Positions 2,289-57,092 of a stretch of DNA of 61,162 nt are shown piece by piece (positions within the stretch are counted from its first letter, which is position 1; every line of letters starts with the position of its first letter). This DNA is from an uncultured Bdellovibrionales bacterium (lineage in GTDB: Bacteria; Bdellovibrionota; Bdellovibrionia; Bdellovibrionales; UBA1609): positions 1 to 61,162 of the forward strand of contig CALLBC010000062.1 of assembly GCA_938001965.1 (NCBI GenBank). Reading direction: 5' to 3'. Position numbers and translations under genes: made by a program. Under the pieces are notes generated by a model. That model was not told the origin of the DNA and ran no database searches. It saw only the letters and a program-made list of their open reading frames with translations.

Positions 2289-2975
2289 TTGATGACCTCA
2301 CTTCCTTCCGTGGACTACGATTTTCGTAATCCAGAAGTTCTTAAGCAAGCTTTGACTCATAAGAGTTTTCACAATGAAAACTCAAATCAGTCTGTTGGCC
2401 ATAATGAAAAATTAGAATTCTTAGGTGACTCTGTTTTAGACCTAGCTTTAAGTGCTATTCTTATGAAGAAGTACCCAGAGTTAGATGAAGGCGCCTTATC
2501 AAAAATTCGCGCAAGCCTTGTGAATGAGAATTTTTTAGCGGAAATGGCCAAATCTATTGAGCTTGAAAAGTATATGTTTTTAGGGCGCGGTGAATCTAAG
2601 ATGATGGGTGCCAGTAAGCCTCGTTTACAGGCTTCATGCTTTGAAGCCGTGATTGGAGCCATGTATTTAGATGGTGGGCTAGAGCCAGCTTATGCTTGGA
2701 TAGAAAAACTATTTAATGAGAAGTTAAACCATATTAATTTAAATGATTTTTTTGCAACAGATTACAAAACAATCCTGCAAGAGAAGATTCAGAAACTATA
2801 TAAGATCACCCCTGTGTATAAATTAACTAAACAAGAGGGACCTGATCACGATAAAACTTTTTATAGTGAAATTCATATTAAAGATGAAATCTCTTTCACT
2901 GGCGTGGGTAGAACCAAAAAAGCTTCTGAACAAAGTGCCGCCAAACAAGCCTTGGAGACAATGAATGGAAAATAA
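2289..2975 (+). CDS. rnc: Ribonuclease III
   Basis: RNase III signature NEKLEFLGDSVLD and a C-terminal dsRBD (GPDHDKTFYSEI...GVGRTKKASEQSAAKQALE). The track start is TTG 2289; ATG at 2292 is equally possible. Confidence 0.95.
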   Translation: MMTSLPSVDYDFRNPEVLKQALTHKSFHNENSNQSVGHNEKLEFLGDSVLDLALSAILMKKYPELDEGALSKIRASLVNENFLAEMAKSIELEKYMFLGRGESKMMGASKPRLQASCFEAVIGAMYLDGGLEPAYAWIEKLFNEKLNHINLNDFFATDYKTILQEKIQKLYKITPVYKLTKQEGPDHDKTFYSEIHIKDEISFTGVGRTKKASEQSAAKQALETMNGK

Positions 2976-3876
2976 CTTTAAAGCTGGATTTGTAGGTGTT
3001 GTTGGAATTCCTAATATGGGTAAAAGTAGTTTGGTAAATCAGCTCATTGGTGAAAAGGTAGGTATTGTATCTGATAAGCCGCAAACAACAAGAAAGAGCG
3101 TTGTTGGCATATTTAGTAATCATGAAATGCAGGCCTTATTTGTAGATGCACCTGGCTTTATTAAAGCTGATAAGGGTTTAAATAAATTTTTGCAAGATGA
3201 AGCGGGAAGTGTGACTGATAAGTCTGATGTGTTAATGCTGTTACTGACTACTGAAGGTCATAATACTAAAACTGCACAGCGAGCCCTTGAAGAGGTGAGT
3301 AAAAAAAATAAACCTTGGTTTGTTGTGATTAATAAGATGGATACAAACCAAACTCATCGAGTTTTAATTTTAGAAGAGCTAATTAAGAAGTACAATGTGC
3401 CTGTCATTAGGCATAGTACTAAAGACCCTATGTTTGATCAGAGTGCAGAAATATTAGCTCATATCAAAAGTATTTTACCTAAATCACCAGGACCTCTTTA
3501 CGATACGGAGAGTTTTACTACTAGCCTTACTCGAGATTGGGTGTCTGAAGTTATTAGAGAAAAGTGCTTTGAGTTACTGCATCAAGAGATCCCATTTAAT
3601 GTTGCTGTTCAAGTTCAAAAATATCAAGAGTCTACGCCTAACTCTTGTGTAAAAATATACTCAGATATTATTGTGACCAAAAAAAATCATTGCCCAATGA
3701 TCATTGGTAAAAAAGGCCAAATGATTAAGGAAATTGGCATGAAGGCGAGAAAAGAAATTGAAGATCTTTTAGGTGAAAAAGTTTACTTAGAGTTATTTAC
3801 TAAAGTGAAGCCATCGTGGCTGAGTGATAACAGAATGTTAAAGGAGCTAGGCTATGTGGTCGAGAAAGACAGCTAA
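2965..3876 (+). CDS. era: GTPase Era
   Basis: G1 GIPNMGKSS, G3 DAPG, G4 NKMD, and a C-terminal KH domain (IIGKKGQMIKEIG). Overlaps the rnc 3' end by 11 nt, in the classical rnc-era order. Confidence 0.95.
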   Translation: MENNFKAGFVGVVGIPNMGKSSLVNQLIGEKVGIVSDKPQTTRKSVVGIFSNHEMQALFVDAPGFIKADKGLNKFLQDEAGSVTDKSDVLMLLLTTEGHNTKTAQRALEEVSKKNKPWFVVINKMDTNQTHRVLILEELIKKYNVPVIRHSTKDPMFDQSAEILAHIKSILPKSPGPLYDTESFTTSLTRDWVSEVIREKCFELLHQEIPFNVAVQVQKYQESTPNSCVKIYSDIIVTKKNHCPMIIGKKGQMIKEIGMKARKEIEDLLGEKVYLELFTKVKPSWLSDNRMLKELGYVVEKDS

Positions 3877-5182
3877 TACTCCCAAAGTGGCTATTATAGG
3901 CCGTCCTAATGTTGGCAAATCAACATTGTTTAATATTTTAACTCGTACAAGAAAATCAGTTGTTAAAGATGAAGCTGGAGTTACTCGCGATATACAAATT
4001 GAGCCCACTGAGTGGTGGGGTAAAAAATTTGATGTTGTAGATACCGGAGGGCTTACAGAAGCTAAGGATGAATTCTCTGTATTAATTAAGGAAAATTTAC
4101 TTTCCCTTATTGATGATTTTGACTCTTTGGTTGTGGTCATGGATGGTAAATCGGGGCTAGTGCCTGAGGACCGCCTGTTGGTGCGTTTGGCCAATGAAAG
4201 CGGTAAGCCTTTTTTGCTCGTAGTGAATAAAGTAGACCAAATGCATAAGAGTGACTTAATTTTAAGTGAGTTTTATGAGTTTGGTCAGGAAGTGATTGCC
4301 ACTTCTTTTGAGCGCAGAGATAATGTCGATGAAGTTGTTGAGTGGATTATTAAAAATGTGGAAGAGCCAAAACACACAGAAAGAGAAGGTCTGCGCATTG
4401 CCATAGTTGGTAAGCCCAATGTTGGTAAGAGCTCTTTGTGTAATTATCTTTTAGGTAAAAAAAGAATGTTGGTTTCCAATATTGCCGGCACAACGGTTGA
4501 TGCCATTGAAGATAGCTTTAGTTATAATGATAATAAGTTTATAATTGTTGATACCGCTGGGCTAAGGAGACAGGCCAAGCGTAATGATGGTGTAGAGTTT
4601 TTGTCTGCAATTAAGTCTCATAAAGCCATAGATAACTCTGATATTGTTTTGTTAATGGTTGATGGGCAAGAAGGGCCAACAAAGCAAGATGCCCATGTTG
4701 TGGAGTACATATTAAGTAAGCATAAAGCAGTTATTATGGTTGCTAATAAAGTTGATTTGGCAAAAAAGAAAATTCCAGCATTCAGAAAATGGTTTAAAGA
4801 AACTACAGTTAAAGAATTTCACTTTTTTAAAGATATTCCTATTGCCTTTACCTGTGCAAACACCGGAACTGGGGTTAATCAGTTATTAGATCAAATTATA
4901 CTGACGTGGGATCGTTTAAATATAAAGATACCAACCTCTCAATTAAATAAATTCTTTTACGATGTTATCAGGCAGGCACCCAGTCCTGTTTACGCGACTA
5001 AGAATGTGAAGTTTTATTATTTGACTCAAACTGAGCAAGTGCCGCCAAGCTTTATTGCTTTTGCAAATCAGCCAGATGGGGTGACTCCGTCTTATCGAAG
5101 GTTTTTATCAAACCGAATTAAAAAGAACTGGGACTTAGCCGGTCTTCCAGTGAGAATATTTGTTATGAAGAGTGGGCGTTGA
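3854..5182 (+). CDS. der: Ribosome-associated GTPase Der/EngA (tandem GTPase domains)
   Basis: Two P-loops (GRPNVGKST and GKPNVGKSS), two DTAG/DTGG and NKVD motifs, and a KH-like C-terminus. Overlaps era by 23 nt. Confidence 0.95.
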   Translation: MWSRKTANTPKVAIIGRPNVGKSTLFNILTRTRKSVVKDEAGVTRDIQIEPTEWWGKKFDVVDTGGLTEAKDEFSVLIKENLLSLIDDFDSLVVVMDGKSGLVPEDRLLVRLANESGKPFLLVVNKVDQMHKSDLILSEFYEFGQEVIATSFERRDNVDEVVEWIIKNVEEPKHTEREGLRIAIVGKPNVGKSSLCNYLLGKKRMLVSNIAGTTVDAIEDSFSYNDNKFIIVDTAGLRRQAKRNDGVEFLSAIKSHKAIDNSDIVLLMVDGQEGPTKQDAHVVEYILSKHKAVIMVANKVDLAKKKIPAFRKWFKETTVKEFHFFKDIPIAFTCANTGTGVNQLLDQIILTWDRLNIKIPTSQLNKFFYDVIRQAPSPVYATKNVKFYYLTQTEQVPPSFIAFANQPDGVTPSYRRFLSNRIKKNWDLAGLPVRIFVMKSGR

Positions 5183-25062: not shown

Positions 25063-25875
25063 ATGAAAAATTTCGTACTAAAAACAGTAATATTCGCATT
25101 ATTCATTGTTATGATAATTTTCTTATCACAACAACCTGCTCATAACGAAGAGCAGGCCAAAAAGGTTTCACAAGGTCTGACTCAGTCTCTTAAGAGTGCA
25201 CAAAATGAACTCTTGTTGGTTTTGGGGGATGATTCAACACTAAAAAAAGAAATCAAAGATTTAAAGCTAGCCTATACAGGCTGTAAAGGCTCAAACACAG
25301 ATTTATTACCGGACTTTTTATATAATAAAGAAACGGGTTTAGTTGAAATTTGTAATGTGACATTACTAAATAGAACTACTGATTTTCCTCAGCGTTTAGT
25401 GTATGAGTTTTTTACTGATCACCAATTATGTATGAACTCGCCAAACGATACGGTAGAGAGAATATGTAATGATCGTGACAGAGATCAGCGTTATGCAGTG
25501 AATAGAGTATTAGCTAGTCATGATAAAAAAAGCACAAACCTTTTAACACTAAATGTAGATTATGGTGATAGAAGCAGTGTGTTTATGGTAATGACGGGGA
25601 ATCAATCTAAATTGGCCTATAAAACTAGTTATGGCGCCGAAGCACTACTTCAGTTAGAAGAGGAAGATATTACTTACTTAAAGAATCAGCTCACTAAAAT
25701 TGACAGAAAGTTTTCTAAGCCTAAGTGTGACCGCCGAGTGATTAAATTATTTGCTCTAAATGATAGGGGACAAAGGTTTAGGTCTTATGCCTGTATTGAG
25801 GCCATTAGCAAACATACACAAAAGTTATTAAAGCTGGCTAGAACTGTGAGTTCTTTCACTAAGAACACTTTCTAA
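25063..25875 (+). CDS. Hypothetical membrane-anchored/exported protein (270 aa)
   Basis: N-terminal hydrophobic segment (FVLKTVIFALFIVMIIFL) and several Cys. No recognised motif. Confidence 0.6.
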   Translation: MKNFVLKTVIFALFIVMIIFLSQQPAHNEEQAKKVSQGLTQSLKSAQNELLLVLGDDSTLKKEIKDLKLAYTGCKGSNTDLLPDFLYNKETGLVEICNVTLLNRTTDFPQRLVYEFFTDHQLCMNSPNDTVERICNDRDRDQRYAVNRVLASHDKKSTNLLTLNVDYGDRSSVFMVMTGNQSKLAYKTSYGAEALLQLEEEDITYLKNQLTKIDRKFSKPKCDRRVIKLFALNDRGQRFRSYACIEAISKHTQKLLKLARTVSSFTKNTF

Positions 25876-25879
25876 GAGT

Positions 25880-26064
25880 CCAAATCTCTGAATAAATATT
25901 TAAAAAATTTCCCCTTTCCTTTTGATTGAGTGCGCTTACGGCAGCATCGCGTCTTCGCGCTTTGTCACCTTTGCAGGTGAACACAGCGCGGATACGCGAA
26001 GCGCGACGCGATACTCAAGCAAAAGGAAAGGGGAAATTTTTTAAATATTTATTCAGAGATTTGG
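25880..26064. repeat. Foldback element, copy A (52-nt arms, 81-nt GC-rich core)
   Basis: 25880-25931 is the reverse complement of 26013-26064 with 1 mismatch in 52. The core 25932-26012 is 72/81 identical to 47231-47311. Starts 5 nt after the stop codon at 25873-25875. Confidence 0.85.
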
Positions 26065-26094: not shown

Positions 26095-26216
26095 CTAGCT
26101 TAGCTTTCTTCTGTGAAGCCTTATCTAAAACGAGTTCGGAGCGCAAAGGGCAAAGCCCCCTGAGCACCGTATGTCTGAGGCTTTAGATAAGGCTTCACAG
26201 AAGAAGGTTAAGCTAG
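26095..26216. repeat. Second long hairpin (35-nt arms, 52-nt loop), unrelated in sequence to the foldback family
   Basis: 26095-26129 (ctagcttagctttcttctgtgaagccttatctaaa) pairs with 26182-26216, with 2 mismatches in 35. The loop contains a gggc-aaa-gccc mini-hairpin. Confidence 0.75.
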
Positions 26217-32355: not shown

Positions 32356-34860
32356 TTGCCCTCTATGGAAAAAAAGCTAACACCCCTTATGAAGCAGTAC
32401 TGGGAAGTGAAGTCTCAGCACCAAGATAAAATTTTATTTTTTAGGATGGGAGATTTTTATGAAATGTTTCATAAAGATGCTGAGCTGGCAGCTCCCATTT
32501 TAAACATTGCCTTAACATCAAGAAATAAAAAAGCAAAAGACGACACTAAGATGTGCGGTATGCCCCATCATAGTATTGCTGGCGCATTGGCAAAGCTTTT
32601 AGCGGCGGGTCATAAGGTGGCTTTATGTGATCAGGTGGAAGACCCAAAGTTAGCCAAGGGTTTAGTAAAAAGAGCGGTTACAAGAATTTTAAGCCCTGGG
32701 ATGGTCTATGACCCAGAAACTTTAGATGAACTGAATGCCAATTATATTTGTAGCTATGATGAAAAAACCATGGCCTTTTATGATTCATCCACTGGTGAGG
32801 CTTTTTATTATTTATTAAATAAAGTTCAAAAAGCTAAAAATTTATTATCAATTTTAAGTCCAGTGGAGATTGTTTTAAGTGGTGCTGGAAAAACTAAAGA
32901 GTTTTCTGATCTCGGTATGCGCTTTCATATTACAGCCCATGATATTAATGAAAACTTTAAAAAGCTAGATGAGCCAGAGCCAGTGCTCAGATTAAAAAGC
33001 TATGCCCAGTATATGGCCGGTGGCAAAGAAGTAAGTTTAAAATTTGAAGTTAAAAATTTGAACCAAAACATGAATTTATCTCCAATAACGCTAAGGCACC
33101 TAGAGATTTTTAAAACCTATCAAGGGGAGCTTAAAGGGAGTTTATTTGCAGCCATTAATAGATGTAAAACGTCTAGCGGTTCTAGGCTTTTAAAAAAGTG
33201 GTTGAGTTTCCCCTTATTAGAGGAAAAAGAGATTACAAAAAGATTTGATGCCGTCTCTTTTTGGATGGGTAAAACTTTAAGTTTAAAAGCTGTAAGAAAA
33301 ATTTTGTCTGGTGTTGGTGATGTGGAAAGGCGACTGAGTAAGGTTTCACAGTCCCACAGTGGCCCGCGAGACTTACTAAGTTTGATCCAGTCATTGAAGT
33401 CCGGGCTTGCAGCTTTAAACCTAGAAGGCTTAGATGATAGCTTTAAGCCTCAAGAAAAGGTTTTAGCTCCTCTTATTGACCTTGCTGAGAGTATGATCGT
33501 GGAAGATCCGCCTGTGAGTGCAGCCAAGGGTGGAGTTATTCAAAAAGGCTTTGATGATGAGTTAGATCAATTAATTAAAGTCACTGACCATGGCCAAAAG
33601 ATGTTGGCTGAGATGGAAGCCGCTGAGCGCACTAAAACTGGAATTAGTAATTTAAAAATAAAATATAATAACGTATTTGGTTATTTTATTGAAGTAACCA
33701 ATTCCCACAAAGATAAAGTGCCAAGTCACTATACCCGAAAACAAACTTTAACTAATGCTGAACGCTATTTAACCGGTGAGTTAAAAGAGTTAGAAGAGAA
33801 AATTCTATCTGGAAAAACTAAACGATTGGAGCTAGAGCAAAAACTGTTTAACGATTTAAGGTTAGAATTTTTAAAGTTATCCAATGAGATTTTGTTTGTA
33901 TCTAGAGTGTGGAGTGAGCTTGATCTATTGAGTTCCTTTGCGTGGCTTGCCATTGAGCAAAACTATTGTCGCCCTGAGTTTATAAATACTGGTGAGATAT
34001 TAATTAAAAAAAGCAGACATCCTGTCATTGAGCAAGAGCTTGCAGAACCATTTATTGCTAATGATATCTTTTTAAATAAAGGGGAGTGTTTGTTGTTAAC
34101 TGGGCCTAATATGGCGGGTAAAAGCACTATCATGCGTCAGGTGGCTATAACAGCTTTAATGGCCCAGGTGGGATGTTTTGTTCCAGCTAAAATGAGTAAG
34201 CTTCCTATATATGATCAAATATTCACAAGAATTGGTGCCAGCGACTCACTCACAGAAGGCTTGTCCACGTTTATGGTGGAAATGAAAGAAACTTCTGAGA
34301 TACTTCAGGCTAGTACGGAGAGCTCACTAATTATAATGGATGAAGTTGGAAGAGGGACAAGCACATTTGATGGAATGAGTTTAGCCCAAAGTATTTTGGA
34401 GTACATTTTAAATAAGGGACAGTCTCCACATTGTTTGTTTGCCACTCATTACCATGAGTTAACGGCCTTAGAAAATAAGTATAAGCCAGTTAAAAACGTT
34501 CATATGGCTATTAAAGATGAAAAAGGCACCCTCCAGTTCCTTTATCAACTGATGCTTGGACCAGCTAATAAATCCTATGGAATTCAAGTGGCAAAGCTTG
34601 CTGGCTTACCTGTTTCTGTGGTTAAGCGTGCTGAGACTTTATTAAGATCTTTTGAAAGTGGTGATCATAAGGGCTTTAGCGATGACCTTCCTTTATTAAA
34701 CTTCCAGGGTGATGAGTTTGTGGATAATGAGCAAGCCATTGATTTAAAAACTGAGGCTGAAGGTACGCTTTTAGAAGAAATTAAAAAAATCTCTTTAGGA
34801 GAAGTGACACCCCTTGAGGCATTGAATAAGATAGCTTCATGGCAGCAAAATCTTTCATAG
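32356..34860 (+). CDS. mutS: DNA mismatch repair protein MutS
   Basis: TPLMKQYWEVK, FFRMGDFYE, Walker A TGPNMAGKST, MDEVGRGTSTFDG, THYHEL. The likely start is ATG 32365; the track start is TTG 32356. Confidence 0.95.
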   Translation: MPSMEKKLTPLMKQYWEVKSQHQDKILFFRMGDFYEMFHKDAELAAPILNIALTSRNKKAKDDTKMCGMPHHSIAGALAKLLAAGHKVALCDQVEDPKLAKGLVKRAVTRILSPGMVYDPETLDELNANYICSYDEKTMAFYDSSTGEAFYYLLNKVQKAKNLLSILSPVEIVLSGAGKTKEFSDLGMRFHITAHDINENFKKLDEPEPVLRLKSYAQYMAGGKEVSLKFEVKNLNQNMNLSPITLRHLEIFKTYQGELKGSLFAAINRCKTSSGSRLLKKWLSFPLLEEKEITKRFDAVSFWMGKTLSLKAVRKILSGVGDVERRLSKVSQSHSGPRDLLSLIQSLKSGLAALNLEGLDDSFKPQEKVLAPLIDLAESMIVEDPPVSAAKGGVIQKGFDDELDQLIKVTDHGQKMLAEMEAAERTKTGISNLKIKYNNVFGYFIEVTNSHKDKVPSHYTRKQTLTNAERYLTGELKELEEKILSGKTKRLELEQKLFNDLRLEFLKLSNEILFVSRVWSELDLLSSFAWLAIEQNYCRPEFINTGEILIKKSRHPVIEQELAEPFIANDIFLNKGECLLLTGPNMAGKSTIMRQVAITALMAQVGCFVPAKMSKLPIYDQIFTRIGASDSLTEGLSTFMVEMKETSEILQASTESSLIIMDEVGRGTSTFDGMSLAQSILEYILNKGQSPHCLFATHYHELTALENKYKPVKNVHMAIKDEKGTLQFLYQLMLGPANKSYGIQVAKLAGLPVSVVKRAETLLRSFESGDHKGFSDDLPLLNFQGDEFVDNEQAIDLKTEAEGTLLEEIKKISLGEVTPLEALNKIASWQQNLS

Positions 34861-37112
34861 AAAAAAAGGATGTCCCTCAGTTTAAAGAGCACTTTAATAG
34901 GTGCTTTAAACTTATGGAGGATGCCGGTGAAAGTTGGCAGTGGCTAAGCACTAAAATATCATTAAACTTAGAGCACTACTTAATTGATCGTTTATCTAAA
35001 ATTCCTAATAGGGACAAAGTCCAAGTGATTAGTGTGGGGTCCTGGTCAAGATCAGAGCTCTGTCCAAGGTCAGATATTGACGTCATATTATTAGGAGAGG
35101 ATAAAGAGCTACGGTTGTTTGTCTCTGAGGCTGAGGCTAAAGGGATCTATTTAAAGTATAGAACCCCAGCAGATATCAATGATTGGTCAATCGGGGTTCA
35201 TGCCTTTGATCATTTATCTTTATTGTTTGCTGTTGCAGTGGATAAAAAGGCTGAGACAATTTTATTAGAGCAAAAAAATAAACTCTGGGAAAACTCTGAA
35301 AAAATAAAAGAAGAGATCATTGATTTAATGTACACTGAAAGAGTGGCGCGTAATAAAAGGTATGACTCCTTAGCGAACTATTTAGAGCCTAATTTAAAGT
35401 ATGGGCCAGGTGGTTTGCGCGATTTGCAGCAATCTTTGGTAACAACAAAGCTATATCCTAAAATCTTTAATAATTATAAAAAAGAAGTGAGTTATTTAGA
35501 TAATATTAAATCATTTTTATTGGTGGTGAGGTATTTGCTTCACTTAGATGGTGGTGGTGATAATTTAGTGGCCAGCTCACAGCAAGGTTTCCATAAGTTA
35601 TTGGGTTTTGATTCTCGGTTAAGCTTTACCTCTCAACTCCAAAAGTCACTTTCAGAAATTAATTTTTATACTCAGTGGATTTATGAGCATACACAAGCAA
35701 ATCCTAATGAGCAGTCCATGCTTTATAGTATGAAAATTGACAGTTTTAGTGATGCCATGGATGTATTACTGGCTAAACCCAACGTGCTTGTTCAGGAGTT
35801 GGTTAAAAATAAAATTAAGCCAATGTCTGTTGGTGAAAGTGATCGTATAGATTTTGCTAATATATTTAATAATAAAAATTGTAATGAAGAGCAAATTATA
35901 GCTTTGTTTAGTTCGGGAATAATTTATAAATTATTCTCTCACTTAGAAAGAGTGAAAGGTTTAGTGCAGTATGATCATTACCATCGGTATACTGTTGACG
36001 CCCATACCCTTCAGGCTCTTCGCTTTTACTTGAAATCCATTAAGGACCCAGAGCCTATATTAGGTTTGAATAAAGAGTGGCTAGCAGAGCTAGATGAGGA
36101 AAGCCATCAAATCCTTATATGGTCTTTACTGTATCATGATATGGCGAAGGGTTTAAAGGGGAGCCACAGTGAGCTTGGTGCTGAGCTTGCTATAACAGAG
36201 CTGCCAGGTTTTGGGGTTGACCCTAAGTTATATAATGAAGTGGCTTGGCAGGTTAAGAATCATTTAATTTTATCTGATGCAGCCTTTAGGAAAAACCCAC
36301 AAGCTCCATCCACTTGGCAATGGCTTAATGAAAAGGGTTTAAACTCAATGCGTTTAAAAATCCTATGTGTTTTAACAGCTATTGATATAATGGCCACAAA
36401 CATTGAGGCATGGACGCCGTGGAAGTCAGAGTTGCTATATAGATTAGTAAAACAAATCTTGTCTCCACAGGTTTCAGGTTTTGTTGATTTAACAAAAAGT
36501 TTAGAGGGTGTTGGTACACAGATACAAAGAGAAGAGTATATAAAGGCCTTGGAGCCAATGATTGTTGGCTCTGTACCAGCGAGTGTTTTTACTGAAGACT
36601 TTAAAGCGCTAGTTAATAAAAATGAAACGTCTTTGCCGTTGCAGGTGCACCAAATAGATGAAAAGTACACATGGGTGCGGCTTCATTCTTTTAAGGATGA
36701 AAAAGGATTATTTTTAGATTGGTCAAAACTTTTATACACCACTGGTTGTGCCGTTCGAGAGGCTTATGTTAATACTCTGCCCAATTTTGGGGCGTACAAT
36801 TGGTTTAAGGTAAAAACCAGAAAGTCACCCAATGTTTTGCTTAAGCTGCTTCAAGCCGCGCAAAGTGAAGTTCCCCACTTTAGAGATGTAGAGTTTAAAT
36901 CTATTAAACTTATTGATTCTCCTAAAGATGATGAATGGATTATTCGCTTTAAAGGGGAGGACCAAGAAGGGGCCTTGGTAGGAGCTGTGCAAAAAATATT
37001 TGATCACGATTTAGAAATCATTTGGGCCCGCGTCCATACGTGGGGAGATGTCTTAGAAGATGTCTTCGCCGTAAAAGGAACGCAAGAAAATATTAACAAA
37101 TTATTAAGTTAG
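34839..37112 (+). CDS. GlnD-like nucleotidyltransferase / HD-domain protein (putative PII uridylyltransferase)
   Basis: NTase motif GSWSRSELCPRSDIDVILL, GPGGLRDLQ, HD motif LLYHDMAKG, and a C-terminal ACT-like region. At 757 aa it is shorter than typical GlnD. Its ATG lies 22 nt inside the mutS 3' end. Confidence 0.7.
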   Translation: MAAKSFIEKKDVPQFKEHFNRCFKLMEDAGESWQWLSTKISLNLEHYLIDRLSKIPNRDKVQVISVGSWSRSELCPRSDIDVILLGEDKELRLFVSEAEAKGIYLKYRTPADINDWSIGVHAFDHLSLLFAVAVDKKAETILLEQKNKLWENSEKIKEEIIDLMYTERVARNKRYDSLANYLEPNLKYGPGGLRDLQQSLVTTKLYPKIFNNYKKEVSYLDNIKSFLLVVRYLLHLDGGGDNLVASSQQGFHKLLGFDSRLSFTSQLQKSLSEINFYTQWIYEHTQANPNEQSMLYSMKIDSFSDAMDVLLAKPNVLVQELVKNKIKPMSVGESDRIDFANIFNNKNCNEEQIIALFSSGIIYKLFSHLERVKGLVQYDHYHRYTVDAHTLQALRFYLKSIKDPEPILGLNKEWLAELDEESHQILIWSLLYHDMAKGLKGSHSELGAELAITELPGFGVDPKLYNEVAWQVKNHLILSDAAFRKNPQAPSTWQWLNEKGLNSMRLKILCVLTAIDIMATNIEAWTPWKSELLYRLVKQILSPQVSGFVDLTKSLEGVGTQIQREEYIKALEPMIVGSVPASVFTEDFKALVNKNETSLPLQVHQIDEKYTWVRLHSFKDEKGLFLDWSKLLYTTGCAVREAYVNTLPNFGAYNWFKVKTRKSPNVLLKLLQAAQSEVPHFRDVEFKSIKLIDSPKDDEWIIRFKGEDQEGALVGAVQKIFDHDLEIIWARVHTWGDVLEDVFAVKGTQENINKLLS

Positions 37113-37124
37113 TGCTAAAGAAGT

Positions 37125-37514
37125 TTCCACTCACATTTATTTTTTTAGGTAGGTATTGCTCGCACGCAGTTCCGTTAACAAGGGGCTGTCCGTAGTGTAG
37201 CTTCTATGTACTAAGGTTATTTAAGTACGAGTAGTTATGCTACCGAGCCTTCCATTCACACTTTGTTTTGGGGTAGGTATTGCTCGCACGCAGTTCCGTT
37301 AACGAGGGGCTGTCTGTAGTGTAGCTTCTACGTATTAAGGTTATTTGTGTGCGAATAGTTGTGCTACCGAGCCTTTCACTCACACTTTGTTTTGGGATAG
37401 GTATTGTTCGCACGCAGTTCCGTTAACGAGGGGCTGCACGAAGTGTAGCTCCCGCGTTACCACGGCTGTTTGAGTACGAGCAATACCTACCCCAAAACAA
37501 AGTGTGAGTGGAAG
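37125..37514. repeat. Three tandem ~125-nt units closed by a 37-nt inverted arm
   Basis: Units run 37125-37249, 37250-37373, and 37374 onward. Units 1 and 2 are roughly 85-90% identical. Unit 3 keeps the first ~70 nt, then diverges and ends in 37477-37513, the reverse complement of the unit 5' arm (37374-37410). Confidence 0.85.
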
Positions 37515-37953
37515 GCGAGGACCCTTTTTGGGACTAGGCACTTACACCATTTAGTGATTTTTGCCCCATTCTCAACAAAATATGTTATAAAAATATGCAT
37601 TCCCGCCCCCTATATTGGCTTTCAAGCCCAGCATAACTCGCTGCAATATAATTTTTTTTTAGTTTTTTGTGACGAAATTTGGGACCAAAAGTCGAGGCTA
37701 ATTCAATTTTTTTTAGAGCCTTTAGGCGCCCGAGTTTGGTCCATAGATGTGGAAAATACCAAGACAAATTACTTACATAAACCCGACTTATTAAGTGTAT
37801 AAAGTTAATTTTTTAACCCTTAAATCCAGTCTAGTTTGGAGGAAGAGCCAGGAAACTACTTGCGACAAAACCAAAATCCTGTCAGACTTTTATAGAGTCG
37901 GGCAATGGAGTCCAAACGTATTTATTAACCATAGGATTTGGGAGGGAGCAAGG

Positions 37954-38364
37954 ATGCTCAGAGATGTTCTAATATCAAAAGGATTATCAAACCGTGAAGC
38001 AGAAGTAGCGGAACTAGTAACACAAGGACTTTCTAATAAGGAAGTTGCTAACCGTTTATTTGTAACGGAAAAAACAGTTAAGTTTCACTTAACAAATATT
38101 TATAAGAAAATGAGTGTAAAGTCTCGTGCCCAACTTATCGTATGGTGTTTACCACACATGAGTTTTATCGAGAAGGATCAAGGTCGTTCTGCGGCACAAG
38201 AGCCAGCTCAAGCTATTAACCAAATGCCGATTGGTCAGCAAAATGTTGCTACAACAATCCCTGCTGGTAACCAAACTGTTGGTGGTATTAACCCTGGCGC
38301 TGGTAACACTGGTTTTGGTGGAACTAACAATGGTGGAACTAACAATGGTGGATCTACTTACTAA
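37954..38364 (+). CDS. Solo LuxR/GerE-type HTH regulator with a Gly/Asn-rich tail
   Basis: ATG 37954 is preceded by GGAGGGAGCAAGG. LSNREAEVAELVTQGLSNKEVANRLFVTEKTVKFHLTNIYKKMSVKSRAQL is a complete LuxR-type HTH at the N-terminus. The C-terminal ~70 aa are low complexity (GGINPGAGNTGFGGTNNGGTNNGGSTY). The track start at 37795 is unlikely. Confidence 0.85.
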   Translation: MLRDVLISKGLSNREAEVAELVTQGLSNKEVANRLFVTEKTVKFHLTNIYKKMSVKSRAQLIVWCLPHMSFIEKDQGRSAAQEPAQAINQMPIGQQNVATTIPAGNQTVGGINPGAGNTGFGGTNNGGTNNGGSTY

Positions 38365-46454: not shown

Positions 46455-47171
46455 ATGAAAGTTATAATAAGTTTGTTGTTAATAGGGATGTTTTATACCG
46501 CTGGGGCTTTTGCTGAGGAAGTGACTGTGGGTAAGGTGAGTAAATCTGGTAAAAAGGCTGTTATATACATTCCTGAGGGAATGACTGTGGAGACGGGCCA
46601 AACATTAGTGATTGGCGGTGGAGAAAGTAAGGGGCAAGTGATGTTGCCTTCAGGAGTCTCTGCAAGAAACAAAGCTATTAGTGGAAATTTTAGCTTTTTT
46701 TCAGATACAGCAGAAACTACGATTGTTGGTCAAACCCCAGGATCAAGTGAACAAACCTCAATGGCTCTTGGACTAAATTATATTAAAAATAATGTAAATT
46801 TTGAGTTTGGTGGAGGCTTAACATACTCAAGTAGCTCAACCACAACGAAGAAAGATAGTTCTTATGGGTTGTCTGGTTTGTTTGAGTATAACTTTATGCC
46901 CAATAAACCAGGCACAACTGTGGTTGCTCATATAGGGGGAGAGCTGGGTTATGCTAGCGGCTCCAGTGAGACTAATACAGGCAGTAAGGATGAGAACTCA
47001 GGGTTAAAGTATGGAGTGTATGGCGGTGTTAAGTACTTTATGTTTCCAGCAAGTGGTTTTGCAATACAGGCTGATCTTGTTTATTTAATTGATAATTCTT
47101 TATCTCAGGATAACATCGATATTTCTGTTTCTAGGCTAGGGTTAAGAGCTGGAGTAAGATACTACTTCTAA
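46455..47171 (+). CDS. Outer-membrane beta-barrel protein
   Basis: Signal peptide ...YTAGAFA, Gly/Ser/Tyr-rich alternating strands, C-terminal GVRYYF. Confidence 0.65.
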   Translation: MKVIISLLLIGMFYTAGAFAEEVTVGKVSKSGKKAVIYIPEGMTVETGQTLVIGGGESKGQVMLPSGVSARNKAISGNFSFFSDTAETTIVGQTPGSSEQTSMALGLNYIKNNVNFEFGGGLTYSSSSTTTKKDSSYGLSGLFEYNFMPNKPGTTVVAHIGGELGYASGSSETNTGSKDENSGLKYGVYGGVKYFMFPASGFAIQADLVYLIDNSLSQDNIDISVSRLGLRAGVRYYF

Positions 47172-47179
47172 TTCAATTT

Positions 47180-47362
47180 CAATGCTCTGAATAAATATTC
47201 TTAATAATTTTCTTCAACTGTTACTAGAGTGCGCTTACGGCAGCATCCCGTCTTCGCACTCTATCACCCTTACGGGTGAGCACAGCGCGGATACGCGAAG
47301 CGCGACACGATACTCTAGAAAAAGTTGAAGCAAATTTTTAAAAATATTTATTCAGAAATTTG
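47180..47362. repeat. Foldback element, copy B
   Basis: Core 47231-47311 is 72/81 identical to copy A. The termini share ctctgaataaatatt. The arms are imperfectly self-complementary (~85% by eye). Begins ~9 nt after the stop at 47169-47171. Confidence 0.8.
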
Positions 47363-47376
47363 GATATTTTAATTAG

Positions 47377-47405
47377 ATAAAAAAAGCCACATACCCGGTA
47401 TGTGG
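47377..47405 (-). terminator. Rho-independent terminator for the 47437..48186 gene
   Basis: On the minus strand: gccacata-ccggg-tatgtggc followed by a run of T (the plus-strand A run at 47377-47384). Confidence 0.7.
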
Positions 47406-47436
47406 CTTCAAGTGAAAGGCTTTTAAAATTTAATGA

Positions 47437-55132: not shown

Positions 55133-55421
55133 AACCTACTGCCGAGCGTTAATATTTAAGAAATTGTCAGTGTCACAATACCACCAGTAATCTGCCGAGA
55201 ATTAATAGAATTTAGTTACGCATAAATTAGTTTAAGATTTTACTTCATAAAATTTGTTGGAGCCAAACTGTCCCTAGAAATATTAAACAGCTTATCAAAA
55301 GTCTTCGCAAGATAAAGATCAATAGATATAAATAGTATGGATTGTAATAGTTTATAATAATTTTAAATCGATTTGGTTTAATTTTTTACGCTCGTTTACC
55401 GAGCGAGAGGGGAGAGTGAGA

Positions 55422-57092
55422 ATGGATAGTGAATCTAATCGTTTCATTAATAAAATTGCATATATATTTATTGCGACTTTATTTTTAGCAACAGCATTTA
55501 TTAGTACTGATGTGTATGCGGACAGTTCTGATGATAGTATAAAAATACTAAGAAATAGAGATCGTGGTGACCGTAACGATAGAAAAAAAGCTCGTGAAAA
55601 TAAAAGGCAAGAGCGTAGACAAGAACGCGCCCGTCCAGAGCGTCAAAGAAATCGTGACAGCGCCAGACAAGAGCGCCCAAGAAATCGTGACCGTGCTAGA
55701 CCAGAGCAACCAAGAAGAAACCCAGATAGAACAAGGCCAAATCGCCCAAGAAACCCAGATAGAACAAGACCAAATCGTCCAAGTAATCCAGATCGCACAA
55801 GACCAAATCGTCCAAGCAATCCAGATAGAACCAGGCCAAATCGCCCAAGAAATCCTGATCGCACAAGACCGAATCGTCCAAGCAACCCAGATAGAACAAG
55901 GCCAAACCGCCCAAGAAATCCGGATCGTACAAGACCTAATCGTCCAAGAAACCCTGACAGAGTTAGGCAAGAAAGACGACAAAGAGAAAGAGATCGTGTA
56001 GAGCGTGAGCAAAGACGTCGTCGTCAAGCTCGTCGTGCAGACCGATTAAGAGATCGTGATCGTAGACATCACAGACGTGTTAGTCGTGACAGATATAGGC
56101 AACACAGACGTTACCATAGATACCCTAGAAGAACGATTCGTCATCATCACAGATGGACTATTCGTTACAACAGATGGTGGAGAAATCATCACCGTTGGGG
56201 GCATCCAGGATGGCCGCATGACAGAATTCATTATCCTTCAAGATGGCCAAATACATCTGATAGATGGTCAGTTTATCAAATTATTAATGTGGCAGATAAC
56301 TTAGAAACTAAGTTTGAGCACATATATAATATGGTTGCAAACCAGTATGGAAGAAGTTCGTCCATAGCGACTAAAGCTTACGCGCTTTGGAGTGCTGCTC
56401 AAGTTTACAGTGATTGCGTAGAGTTTTATAATGGAAACTTACACTTCTCATTATATGAGCTTTATAACTTAGAAGAAGCAGCTTCTAACTTTGAAAGTGA
56501 ACTGAATAGATACGGTTCATCTTCAAGTGTTCATAGGCATTTCAATGTTGGTAAGTTCTTTATCAATGAACTGTTATGGCAGTACCGTCAGCAAATTGGT
56601 CATATCGATACGTGGAGAGATCAAATTAATGAAGGTGACAGTTGGAGACAAGACGCTAATGATGAGTGGGATGATGTAAATGATACTTATTCATCTAAAA
56701 GCTTTTACTTCTGGTGGACAAAGCCACATAGAGTTGCAACTTGGACACTTGATACACCAACCACTTTAAGCTCCATATCTCTTGAGGCGGTTAATACAAA
56801 TGGCCTCAGAGGTAAAAACGGAGTGGCTGGAATTAGCGAAATTTTACTGATCTATACTGATGGTAGTGAGTTAAATATTGTTAGTAGAAGTCATGAAAAG
56901 TACTCGCAAAGATCTGGGCAGTTAGTGTTGCGTGATCAAGGAGACTTCCTTGAAGTGTATAACCCTAATCCAAACTTAAAAGTTCGTGAGATTCAGATAA
57001 AAGCGGACTCTTGGGTAGCTCCTGAGGTGGATGTTGATATTCAAGTTAATATTAACTCTTATGAGTTAAACTCACTAAGAAACTTAAATTAA
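55422..57092 (+). CDS. Exported, extremely Arg-rich repeat protein with His/Trp/Arg-rich linker and globular C-terminal domain
   Basis: ATG 55422 is preceded by GGGGAG; GTG 55416 is the track start. Signal-like FINKIAYIFIATLFLATAFISTDVYA. 7 x NPDRTRPNRP(R/S). Then RRHHRRVSRDRYRQHRRYHRYPRR...WWRNHHRWGHPGWPH, followed by ~270 aa of ordinary composition. Confidence 0.75.
   Translation: MDSESNRFINKIAYIFIATLFLATAFISTDVYADSSDDSIKILRNRDRGDRNDRKKARENKRQERRQERARPERQRNRDSARQERPRNRDRARPEQPRRNPDRTRPNRPRNPDRTRPNRPSNPDRTRPNRPSNPDRTRPNRPRNPDRTRPNRPSNPDRTRPNRPRNPDRTRPNRPRNPDRVRQERRQRERDRVEREQRRRRQARRADRLRDRDRRHHRRVSRDRYRQHRRYHRYPRRTIRHHHRWTIRYNRWWRNHHRWGHPGWPHDRIHYPSRWPNTSDRWSVYQIINVADNLETKFEHIYNMVANQYGRSSSIATKAYALWSAAQVYSDCVEFYNGNLHFSLYELYNLEEAASNFESELNRYGSSSSVHRHFNVGKFFINELLWQYRQQIGHIDTWRDQINEGDSWRQDANDEWDDVNDTYSSKSFYFWWTKPHRVATWTLDTPTTLSSISLEAVNTNGLRGKNGVAGISEILLIYTDGSELNIVSRSHEKYSQRSGQLVLRDQGDFLEVYNPNPNLKVREIQIKADSWVAPEVDVDIQVNINSYELNSLRNLN
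55719..55949 (+). repeat. Seven in-frame 33-bp tandem repeats (coding), with a degenerate eighth unit to ~55982
   Basis: The units aac/aat cca/cct/ccg gat aga/cgc/cgt aca/acc agg/aga cca/ccg/cct aat/aac cgc/cgt cca aga/agt/agc were read directly. Only the last codon changes the amino acid (R/S). Confidence 0.9.

Follow-up and report, generated by a model that had tools for sequence, protein, structure and literature searches.

A probable MITE-like foldback insertion with tandem partial units downstream of glnD in an uncultured Bdellovibrionales bacterium

The window analysed here is a 61,162-nt stretch of DNA from an uncultured bacterium of the Bdellovibrionales. Within it, an open reading frame at 34839-37112, which carries a GlnD_UR_UTase domain, ends with the stop codon TAG (37110-37112), and an array of tandem repeats begins after a spacer of 12 nt (the stop codon and spacer together occupying 37110-37124 on the plus strand). 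The array lies in a gene-free interval of 841 nt (37113-37953). The next gene encodes a LuxR protein, whose start, judged by the match to its orthologues, is most likely the ATG at 37954, and both this gene and glnD run in the same direction as the array. Directly 3′ of the array is a small hairpin, GGACCC-TTTTT-GGGAC (37519-37535, plus strand), the counterpart of which stands directly after the glnD stop codon in the related locus L011. This hairpin may be a remnant of a glnD 3′-end signal; at the present site it has no U-tract and the terminator scan was negative. Farther downstream lies a conserved upstream control region of luxR (about 310 nt, 37647-37953, plus strand), which is outside the array and nearly identical in the related loci L011 and L012. 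Its last 150 nt or so are also conserved in L002 and L003, and a block consisting of a motif and a ribosome-binding site is conserved upstream of luxR in 80 loci. The array ends about 130 nt before this conserved region begins, at about 37647.

The MutS-GlnD-LuxR-4HBT gene order is kept, without the array, in the closest relatives (L011, L012 and L002) and in L003. The array-free spacers between glnD and luxR measure 445 nt in L011 and about 380 nt in L012, the LuxR proteins of which are 97% identical to that of the window, 373 nt in L002 and 571 nt in L003. Relative to L011, the inserted sequence starts at about 37115: L011 reads TAGTG followed immediately by GGACCTTTTTGG, and at the same junction the window reads TAGTG, then ctaaagaagt, the array, ga and GGACCCTTTTTGGG. 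This lineage-specific insertion of about 404 nt (37115-37518, no strand assigned) has no counterpart at the orthologous site of the relatives. The search of a unit against relatives that had been proposed in the original prediction was carried out with blastn and nhmmer on 80 orthologous glnD-luxR loci (the four named above and 76 further Bdellovibrionota) and revealed no similarity; a covariance model likewise found no array in these loci. The array had first been described as part of the leader of the LuxR gene. This assignment is not supported, in that the array begins 12 nt after the glnD stop codon and is missing from the 80 orthologous loci; because it is missing even where LuxR is 97% identical, the conserved control of luxR cannot involve it. 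A scan of 36900-38100, which covers sigma-70-like promoters, detected neither such a promoter on the plus strand nor an intrinsic terminator. Tandem small-RNA genes were rejected on the same grounds, since no unit has a promoter or terminator of its own in this interval.

Tandem Repeats Finder described the array as 2.6 copies of a 124-nt period (37125-37450; 88% matches, score 503). The three tandem units recognised earlier begin at 37125, 37249 and 37373, at most 1 nt from the starts originally given. Unit 1 (37125-37248, plus strand, 124 nt) has an outer left arm that has decayed towards A/T and lacks an outer right arm. Unit 2 (37249-37372, plus strand, 124 nt) is 90% identical to unit 1 and likewise lacks an outer right arm; its left arm pairs better than any other with the single right arm at the end of the array. 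Both of these partial copies retain the left arm, the core and a remnant of the inner part. The last part of the array is a complete imperfect palindrome of 146 nt (37371-37516, no strand assigned), which we identified from its end-to-end fold and the alignment of its halves and regard as the basic foldback element. Its left half belongs to unit 3, its centre is near 37443, and its right half includes the 46-nt right arm (37471-37516). A complete palindrome of this MITE or foldback type had previously been overlooked in the last unit.

The right arm is 89% complementary over 46 nt to the arm of unit 3 (37371-37416) and 93% complementary over 46 nt to that of unit 2 (37247-37292). With unit 1 it pairs weakly, in stretches of 27 nt and 20 nt at 85% each. 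The pair count reported earlier for 37374-37410 against 37477-37513 (34 Watson-Crick pairs, two T-G and one A-C) was exact; the arm of unit 2 pairs better, with 36 Watson-Crick pairs and one T-G over 37 nt, and, at 97% over 37-40 nt, is also more similar to the right arm than the left arm of the neighbouring unit 3 is. The idea that a single right arm could pair alternatively with several left arms therefore holds for units 2 and 3, with only weak pairing to unit 1. The plain 66-nt loop that had been drawn in unit 3 has to be abandoned, because the loop is itself largely palindromic and 37371-37516 folds from end to end.

A core of 41 nt, GGTAGGTATTGCTCGCACGCAGTTCCGTTAACGAGGGGCTG, is conserved in all three units (37148-37188, 37272-37312 and 37396-37436, plus strand). 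It has three occurrences at no more than two mismatches, with none expected from 100 shuffles, and contains a local hairpin, GCAGUUCC/GGGGCUGU, with three G-U pairs. As read from the aligned units, the core differs between units at one or two positions, compared with a divergence of 13-35% in the rest of the unit. In unit 1, a second imperfect local stem, hairpin B (37192-37243, plus strand; equivalent to 37316-37367 in unit 2), has five to seven G-U pairs and no A-C pair on the plus strand. Between units 1-2 and unit 3, the arm and core are 95-98% identical, whereas the 3′ half shows an identity of about 55-60%. The GC content of the array is 46.7%, compared with 36.5% for the window. A period of 124 nt is not divisible by three and stop codons occur in all six frames, and the contiguous 124-nt units have homologous interiors and no unique spacers; the array is thus neither coding nor a CRISPR, as had been argued before.

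Searches for other members of the family returned nothing comparable. Rfam gave no match at gathering scores for the whole window and none at E<=10 for 36900-38100, in agreement with the original prediction, which had recognised no family; a tRNA/tmRNA scan was also negative. When 470 kb of sequence were searched with a covariance model of the unit, the array itself was the only match, and no second locus of the array family was found within the 61-kb window. Exact-seed scans of reference genomes and of metagenome and viral contigs with three conserved segments yielded either nothing or chance matches of 19-22 nt; one 30-nt seed match lay inside a Paenibacillus open reading frame. A blastn search of plasmids and phages with the array found nothing, and when the six frames of the array (spurious open reading frames) were compared with a database of about 5.8 billion proteins, none of the 8,000 scored candidates reached E<=10. 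Several other classes were considered and rejected: a retron (no reverse transcriptase nearby), an integron attC array (no cassettes), an iteron origin (for which the units are much too long), a Csr/Rsm-type sponge (GGA loop motifs are absent) and self-cleaving ribozyme repeats (no Rfam signal).

What kind of sequence, then, is this array? We consider it probable that it is an orphan, lineage-specific, non-coding, MITE-like foldback insertion with local tandem amplification, which left two partial copies after the glnD stop codon. First, terminal inverted repeats (46-nt arms, 89-93%) enclose a short non-coding interior in an element of 146 nt. Second, the site is filled in the window and empty at the orthologous positions of L011, L012, L002 and L003. 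No target-site duplication was found: the flanks, which end in TAGTGCTAAAGAAGT on the left and begin with GAGGACCC on the right, contain no direct repeat. The degenerate left end of unit 1 could hide such a duplication. Among the 54 open reading frames of the window that were scanned, Pfam detected no transposase, recombinase, RAYT or integrase. We propose that the basic 146-nt element arrived by a transposition-like insertion, and that a truncated unit would then have formed and been duplicated, whether through slipped-strand mispairing, through unequal recombination or by re-insertion next to it. The left arm and core would have been kept nearly identical among the units by gene conversion or by constraint. 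Besides the lack of a second copy, a target-site duplication or a transposase in these searches, two observations run against the MITE-like reading: one simple tandem duplication cannot explain the low 3′-half identity of units 1-2 to unit 3, and folding of units 1 and 2 on the plus strand only (see below) is not predicted for a purely DNA-level parasite.

The array is not the only foldback in the window. In foldback B1 (25880-26064, no strand assigned), which belongs to a different family, arms of 52 nt with 98% complementarity flank a GC-rich core; this element starts 4 nt past the stop codon at 25875. A second copy of family B, foldback B2 (47186-47356, no strand assigned), lies 21 kb away as a direct repeat of B1 (77% over 206 nt) with its termini and core conserved; it begins no more than about 15 nt past the stop codon at 47171, upstream of a terminator-like hairpin at about 47386-47410. 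The core of family B had no matches in public genomes or viral contigs. Foldback C (26095-26216, no strand assigned), of a third family, adjoins B1 and has arms of 35 nt with 94% complementarity; the B1/C site measures 401 nt here compared with 104 nt in L002. Relatives also carry long foldbacks (L048, L037 and L051), and that of L048 begins at a stop codon. All of these foldbacks resemble the array in having long self-complementary arms around a GC-richer core and in being missing from the orthologous site of relatives. Their position is also similar, in that B1 and B2 begin a few nucleotides past a stop codon, the L048 foldback begins at one, C adjoins B1, and all are upstream of the next signal. 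They differ from the array in that their sequences are unrelated to it, they have no direct tandem copies, and they show no one-sided bias of G-T mismatches. The three further foldbacks of the window, in positions equivalent to that of the array, had escaped notice earlier. Because B1 and B2 are dispersed and C is in an equivalent position, foldback insertion is ongoing in this genome. The repeated occurrence of unrelated foldbacks only a few nucleotides from stop codons (three elements of the window and that of L048) suggests either targeted insertion at the 3′ ends of genes or strong selective filtering.

These dispersed elements also bear on an explanation without any mobile element, in which a piece of local or inserted DNA was duplicated in tandem by slippage at replication, after which template switching, copying a left arm in inverted form, made the right arm, and no transposition-competent element ever existed. 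Such a local rearrangement would account for the orphan status of the family in all searches run and for the absence of a target-site duplication, and the greater similarity of the right arm to unit 2 (97%) than to the adjacent unit 3 is what recent copying or conversion would produce. We nevertheless consider it unlikely, because the palindromy of 37371-37516 runs, decaying, through the centre and is not limited to a fresh arm, and because the same window contains the dispersed B1/B2 family and a third foldback in equivalent positions. It also leaves about 400 nt of GC-richer DNA unexplained. The possibility that a duplication took in the end of the gene, such that the unit tails were copied from the 3′ end of glnD, was tested by local alignment and rejected (p of about 0.2 against shuffles, with 166 of 755 genomic control windows equalling the alignment).

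Among described repeats, the MITE-like array most readily invites comparison with the Correia (CREE) elements of Neisseria and the enterobacterial ERIC (IRU) sequences. Like it, these are 100-170 nt long, non-coding, and built of long terminal inverted repeats around a core; they form a single long hairpin if transcribed, occupy intergenic positions next to gene ends, and vary in presence among relatives. Repeats of the MITE-like kind are bounded by terminal inverted repeats and take up a tight fold in RNA; they are enriched downstream of coding sequences, occur in clusters or nested in each other, and may contain modules repeated in tandem (PMC3049150). In the case of Correia elements, RNase III binds or cleaves them (PMC2649163). 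By analogy with these two families, the array might be expected to lead to cleavage of its RNA by RNase III or by RNase E, or to a change in mRNA stability (PMC2649163, PMC3049150). In contrast to them, the array has no sequence similarity to any described family, is known from one locus instead of tens to hundreds, lacks a TA or other target-site duplication, and has two partial tandem copies on its 5′ side, which would be atypical there. The pneumococcal BOX element (boxA-boxB(n)-boxC) is similar in being modular, in the pairing of its terminal modules, in having one module in tandem copies and in its tight predicted fold (PMC3049150). In BOX, the tandem boxB modules are internal and without a terminal arm, whereas the repeated unit of the array includes the left terminal arm and thus offers the only right arm several partners in competition. 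In addition, BOX is a high-copy dispersed family without sequence similarity to the array, and a BOX-type modular repeat was rejected because the modules of the array are not partitioned as A-B(n)-C. REP/BIME and REPIN sequences are, like the array, extragenic palindromes downstream of genes (PMC3116915, PMC3049150); they form clusters of alternating orientation and act as stabilisers or attenuators at mRNA 3′ ends (PMC3116915, PMC3049150). REP units are about 20-40 nt long and number hundreds per genome, compared with arms of 46 nt and a single locus for the array. For these reasons, and because the window has no RAYT/IS200-like (Y1-transposase-like) open reading frame, a RAYT-mobilised REP or REPIN was also rejected.

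From its position, the array is probably transcribed as part of the glnD 3′ untranslated region, where it would form a very stable hairpin: it lies downstream of glnD on the same strand, and neither a promoter nor a terminator was recognised within it. In such an RNA, the right arm would anneal to one of two left arms, that of unit 3, which is kinetically favoured, or that of unit 2, which is thermodynamically favoured. The resulting duplex of 40-46 bp would obstruct 3′ exonucleases, form a road-block to transcription or be cleaved by RNase III; a gene for RNase III is present in the window (2289-2975). The effect would fall on the fate of the glnD mRNA, and read-through into luxR would be touched only indirectly. 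The array may equally be selectively neutral. If the MITE-like reading is correct, the array represents another small palindromic repeat that colonises the 3′ end of a housekeeping gene, in this case in an uncultured, deep-branching lineage of the Bdellovibrionota without described repeat families. It should then be annotated neither as a luxR leader nor as an RNA gene, and it would serve as a marker of recent genome dynamics. With several left arms and one right arm, it would also constitute, if transcribed, a natural experiment in alternative long-range RNA pairing.

A functional role of the units in RNA was considered as well. According to this explanation, the units would be plus-strand RNA modules that act in cis on luxR read-through or give rise to 3′-UTR-derived small RNAs; each would adopt a Y-shape in which a stem of 5 bp closes off hairpins A and B, and the terminal arm would enter mutually exclusive, switch-like long-range pairings. 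The complete palindrome does not discriminate between strands (-96.3 kcal/mol for plus and -90.9 kcal/mol for minus, with z about -13.5 on both). In contrast, units 1 and 2 fold better than shuffles on the plus strand only: unit 1 reaches -37.3 kcal/mol as a plus-strand RNA, with z of -3.4 compared with 0 on the minus strand, and the values for unit 2 are -2.0 and -0.7. The whole array folds to -197.8 kcal/mol on the plus strand and -155.4 kcal/mol on the minus strand, and on the plus strand hairpins A and B together have eight to ten G-U pairs and no A-C pair. The far stronger conservation of the 41-nt core than of the remainder of the units, and the shared orientation with both flanking genes, would also be consistent with RNA modules. 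Against them, the plus strand of the array is 57% G+T, which by itself makes this strand fold better, and its shuffles are already about 19 kcal/mol more stable than those of the minus strand. In the alignment read by eye, moreover, unit 3 appears to differ from units 1-2 mostly at plus-strand C/T positions, which would give G-T pairs without selection.

The original prediction had drawn on four substitutions that keep pairing if G-U pairs are allowed. These four do preserve their pairs, but the minimum-energy structure of unit 1 has six unit-1/unit-2 differences at paired positions, and the other two break a pair; with two independent copies only, this ratio is not significant. Nor is there a sense-strand G-T bias among the four complete palindromes of the window (11 G-T and 8 A-C), and such a bias was therefore rejected as a general trait of the foldbacks of this genome. 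The array is missing from all relatives examined, in which luxR has its own conserved upstream block, no promoter or terminator accompanies the individual units, and Rfam offers no match. Of the plus-strand RNA proposed earlier, the plus-strand-only folding of units 1 and 2 was thus upheld, while conservation and significant covariation were not found; the results lend the idea weak support, and we regard functional RNA modules as rather improbable.

A still bolder and decidedly doubtful conjecture would unite these elements. The glnD array and the other foldbacks might form a class in the Bdellovibrionota that is placed between stop codon and terminator and serves as 3′-UTR RNA modules. The partial units of the array would then have become plus-strand-only Y-shaped RNAs built on the conserved 41-nt core, with the one right arm selecting among left arms as a switch of processing or stability (e.g., through RNase III), and mobilisation would recognise the 3′ ends of genes.

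Finally, an assembly artefact, in which repeat-containing metagenome reads were mis-joined to create the array or its copy number, is very improbable: although the lineage is uncultured, repeats trouble short-read assemblers and an independent Logan assembly breaks inside unit 1, the array is in the middle of a contig with long synteny and a flanking gene order as in relatives, and its units differ by about 10%, which is enough to resolve them. For the right side, look-ups of LuxR (136-aa and 189-aa versions) and of 4HBT gave no exact product on record, and a Logan contig found through the ZIP gene ends inside the 4HBT gene. On the left side, the Logan contig L001, from the same organism, is 100% identical to the window over the end of glnD and the 53 nt with which unit 1 begins. 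Its end coincides exactly with the point at which units 1 and 2 cease to agree, past a 32-mer that they share, and this position of the break supports the presence of at least two unit variants in the reads.

How did the array of tandem units come to lie behind glnD? The gene-free interval that holds it (37113-37953) is preceded by genes for MutS (32356-34860) and a GlnD-like uridylyltransferase (glnD, 34839-37112), and is followed by those for a small GerE/LuxR regulator (luxR), whose most probable start is ATG 37954, in line with all orthologues, and a 4HBT thioesterase. The array begins 12 nt past the glnD stop codon. The MutS-GlnD-GerE-4HBT order is kept in the corresponding loci of four relatives (L002, L003, L011 and L012), and the array is absent from all four: the glnD-luxR spacer measures 841 nt in the window, with the array, versus 373 nt in L002, 571 nt in L003, 445 nt in L011 and ~380 nt in L012 (LuxR 97% identical in the last two). 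Directly after glnD, L011 reads TAG-TG|GGACCTTTTTGGAACCAG, and the window reads TAG-TG, ctaaagaagt, the array, ga and GGACCCTTTTTGGGACTAGG. These junctions indicate an insertion of ~404 nt (37115-37518) that separates the glnD stop codon from a small hairpin. By this alignment of loci, the array is a lineage-specific insertion adjoining glnD. The best GlnD homologue is 55% identical, and GlnD homologues place the organism as a deep branch of Bdellovibrionota.

The tandem units and the inverted arm of the original prediction proved to be real: Tandem Repeats Finder delimited an array at 37125-37450 (period 124, 2.6 copies, 88% matches, score 503), a repeat finder recovered a 61-nt segment three times in register (87-100% identical), and three copies of a 41-nt core are present, none with more than two mismatches, where shuffles are expected to contain none. 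The array was also rightly read as non-coding, because its period of 124 is not divisible by 3 and all six frames contain stops; its GC content is 46.7%, compared with 36.5% for the window, and its plus strand is 57% G+T. The pair count for 37374-37410 against 37477-37513 was exact (34 Watson-Crick, 2 T-G and 1 A-C), and the arm of unit 2 pairs better with the right arm (36 Watson-Crick and 1 T-G). Over 46 nt, the right arm (37471-37516) is 93% complementary to the left arm of unit 2 (37247-37292) and 89% to that of unit 3 (37371-37416), so that alternative partners do exist, but unit 1 offers just two shorter stretches, each 85% complementary. Folding showed that unit 3 and the right arm together (37371-37516, 146 nt) form an imperfect palindrome from end to end, the left half aligning with the reverse complement of the right half through the centre. 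Thus, the arms described around a loop at 37374-37513 do pair, but the palindromy extends beyond them. The folding energy of this segment is -96.3 kcal/mol for the plus strand and -90.9 kcal/mol for the minus strand, ~13.5 SD below shuffles in both cases. Units 1 and 2 retain the left arm and the 41-nt core, which hardly varies, together with a 3' part that has diverged, but in both the right arm lacks its outer ~23 nt. From unit to unit, identity is 95-98% across arm plus core, whereas the 3' half of units 1 and 2 has only ~55-60% identity to its counterpart in unit 3; in unit 1, decay has shifted the outer left arm towards A/T.

A whole-window inverted-repeat scan revealed three more long foldbacks: B1 (25880-26064, 52-nt arms, 98% complementary), B2 (47186-47356, 45-nt arms, 89% complementary) and C (26095-26216, 35-nt arms, 94% complementary, with a 52-nt GC-rich centre). 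B1 and B2 form one family, B, with 77% identity over 206 nt; its outer termini (CTCTGAATAAATATT...) and GC-rich core are conserved between the copies, one stem of the core showing a two-sided change (CACCU/AGGUG to CACCC/GGGUG), and the arm middles have diverged between copies with self-complementarity kept within each. B1 begins 4 nt past the stop codon at 25875, with C abutting it ~30 nt after, and B2 begins no more than ~15 nt past the stop codon at 47171, upstream of a terminator-like hairpin at ~47386-47410. The array, B1/C and B2 occupy precisely the three largest intergenic gaps of the window, and the B1 and C site spans 401 nt in the window versus 104 nt in L002. The window is ordinary chromosome, with Era, Der, purine synthesis and murein recycling genes, and no transposase or recombinase was found among the ORFs scanned. 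Long foldbacks occur at about 1 per 80 kb in other Bdellovibrionota loci, compared with 1 per 15 kb in the window. Those of three such loci (L048, 4402-4681, beginning at the stop codon of ORF 3312-4403; L037, 4226-4493, with 96-nt arms, 97% complementary; and L051, 3403-3768) lie downstream of genes, are sometimes nested and have no sequence likeness to the elements of the window. That foldbacks unrelated to one another repeatedly lie only a few nucleotides from stop codons is, in our opinion, the most interesting lead.

No family had been recognised for the array, and Rfam likewise gave no match at gathering scores or at E<=10; no tRNA or tmRNA was found. Exact-seed scans of three conserved segments against reference genomes, JGI metagenomes and viral contigs returned chance seeds only, one of them within a Paenibacillus ORF. 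No match was obtained with blastn among plasmids and phages, with a six-frame pseudo-protein search for spurious ORFs in other array copies, with nhmmer and blastn in 80 orthologous loci, or with a covariance model of the unit over 470 kb. This lineage is evidently not represented in the searchable DNA collections; family B, surely two-copy here, is likewise without a match in them. Among known elements, the array comes closest to the MITE-like palindromic repeats found in transcribed form inside mRNAs (Correia, ERIC) and to the modular BOX elements. With MITEs it shares terminal inverted repeats, a small size without coding capacity, and a site that is filled here and empty in relatives, but neither a target-site duplication nor a second locus in the window or the collections searched was found; we therefore call it MITE-like rather than a proven MITE, a new, orphan element of an already known kind. 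Its 5' partial tandem copies, in which several left arms compete for one right arm, are unusual and are not enough on their own to define a new kind. An orphan element with no target-site duplication would also suit a purely local rearrangement with no mobile progenitor, which we consider rather unlikely, since the palindromy through the centre and the other foldbacks of the window fit it less well.

Could the array instead be a functional plus-strand RNA? Points in favour are its conserved core and the strand asymmetry of folding; points against are that no relative has the array and that no significant covariation is seen. We judge this reading slightly less probable than a local rearrangement. 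Units 1 and 2 (-37.3 kcal/mol, z -3.4, and -39.2 kcal/mol, z -2.0) beat shuffles on the plus strand only, being indistinguishable from them on the minus strand, and for the whole array the folding energy is -197.8 kcal/mol for the plus strand versus -155.4 for the minus. The structure predicted for unit 1 comprises a 5-bp closing stem, hairpin A (GCAGUUCC/GGGGCUGU, 3 G-U pairs) and hairpin B, which is long and imperfect (5 G-U pairs); the arms of hairpin B have, on the plus strand, G-T at five positions in unit 1 and seven in unit 2, and A-C at none. The four substitutions said to preserve pairing do so, but they are four of six unit-1/unit-2 differences at paired positions, and the other two break the pair. 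This asymmetry lends the RNA reading weak support, because there are only two, largely non-independent copies, because of those two broken pairs, because plus-strand shuffles, that strand being G+T-rich, already fold ~19 kcal/mol better than minus-strand shuffles, and because no one-sided bias is seen in the window's four complete palindromes (11 G-T to 8 A-C). In an alignment read by eye, the differences of units 1-2 from unit 3 appear to be mostly plus-strand C/T, which would yield G-T pairs without selection and further weakens this reading. Neither a plus-strand sigma-70-like promoter nor an intrinsic terminator was found within the units, which are thus unlike independent sRNA genes.

An assembly artefact is very improbable, given that the array is mid-contig, that synteny is kept and that its left junction was reproduced in L001, a Logan contig assembled independently from the same organism, which matches at 100% through the end of glnD and 53 nt into unit 1 and breaks off at the first unit-1/unit-2 difference after a common 32-mer, as expected if the reads hold both unit variants. 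In this contig, from run ERR9287628, positions 4666-4730 correspond to window 37113-37177, and its end is the branch point of the unit variants.

Most likely, then, the insertion directly behind glnD was that of a MITE-like non-coding foldback, 146 nt long with ~46-nt terminal inverted arms. A truncated unit may have arisen and then been duplicated by slippage, unequal recombination or adjacent re-insertion, and gene conversion or constraint might afterwards have kept the arm-plus-core homogeneity. Being downstream of glnD on the same strand and lacking signals of its own, the array is probably transcribed together with glnD, as its 3' region. In such a transcript, the right arm would join in a duplex of 40-46 bp with the left arm of unit 3 (the nearest) or of unit 2 (the most stable), the latter pairing being that of the minimum-energy structure. 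By analogy with Correia, ERIC, BIME and BOX elements (PMC2649163; PMC3049150), such a duplex might act as an exonuclease barrier, a transcriptional road-block or a substrate of RNase III, which is encoded at 2289-2975 of the window.

If luxR is affected at all, this would be indirectly, by way of read-through. The array had been described as lying in a gene-free leader, with luxR as the downstream gene, but it is missing in relatives and a different block (~37647-37953), ~130 nt further downstream, is conserved upstream of luxR, indicating that this gene has its own control region. The block is nearly identical in L011 and L012, and in L002 and L003 conservation extends over its last ~150 nt. 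Comparison of 80 Bdellovibrionota loci showed two recurrent features upstream of luxR, an invariant GGAGGGAGCAAGG-ATG block and a palindromic CTGTCAGACTTT(T/A)ATACAGG motif, and the conserved region is a candidate operator or 5'-UTR element. The former, as GGAGGGAGCAAGG-ATGCTC, is a ribosome-binding/start block present in most of these loci (L012-L091), and the latter, as CTGTCAGACTTT(T/A)ATACAGG(TGGT), lies ~60-110 nt upstream of luxR in most of them. At its 3' end, the luxR ORF contains a 15-nt tandem repeat (38316-38356, 2.7 copies, 96% matches) encoding a GGTNN-type low-complexity tail not common to orthologues, whose alignments with the window LuxR reach only the first ~110-120 residues. 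Elsewhere in the window, ~10 copies of a 33-nt tandem repeat (55627-55961, 79-87% matches) lie inside a 558-aa ORF (55416-57092) and, the period being in frame (11 codons), presumably encode a repetitive protein segment.
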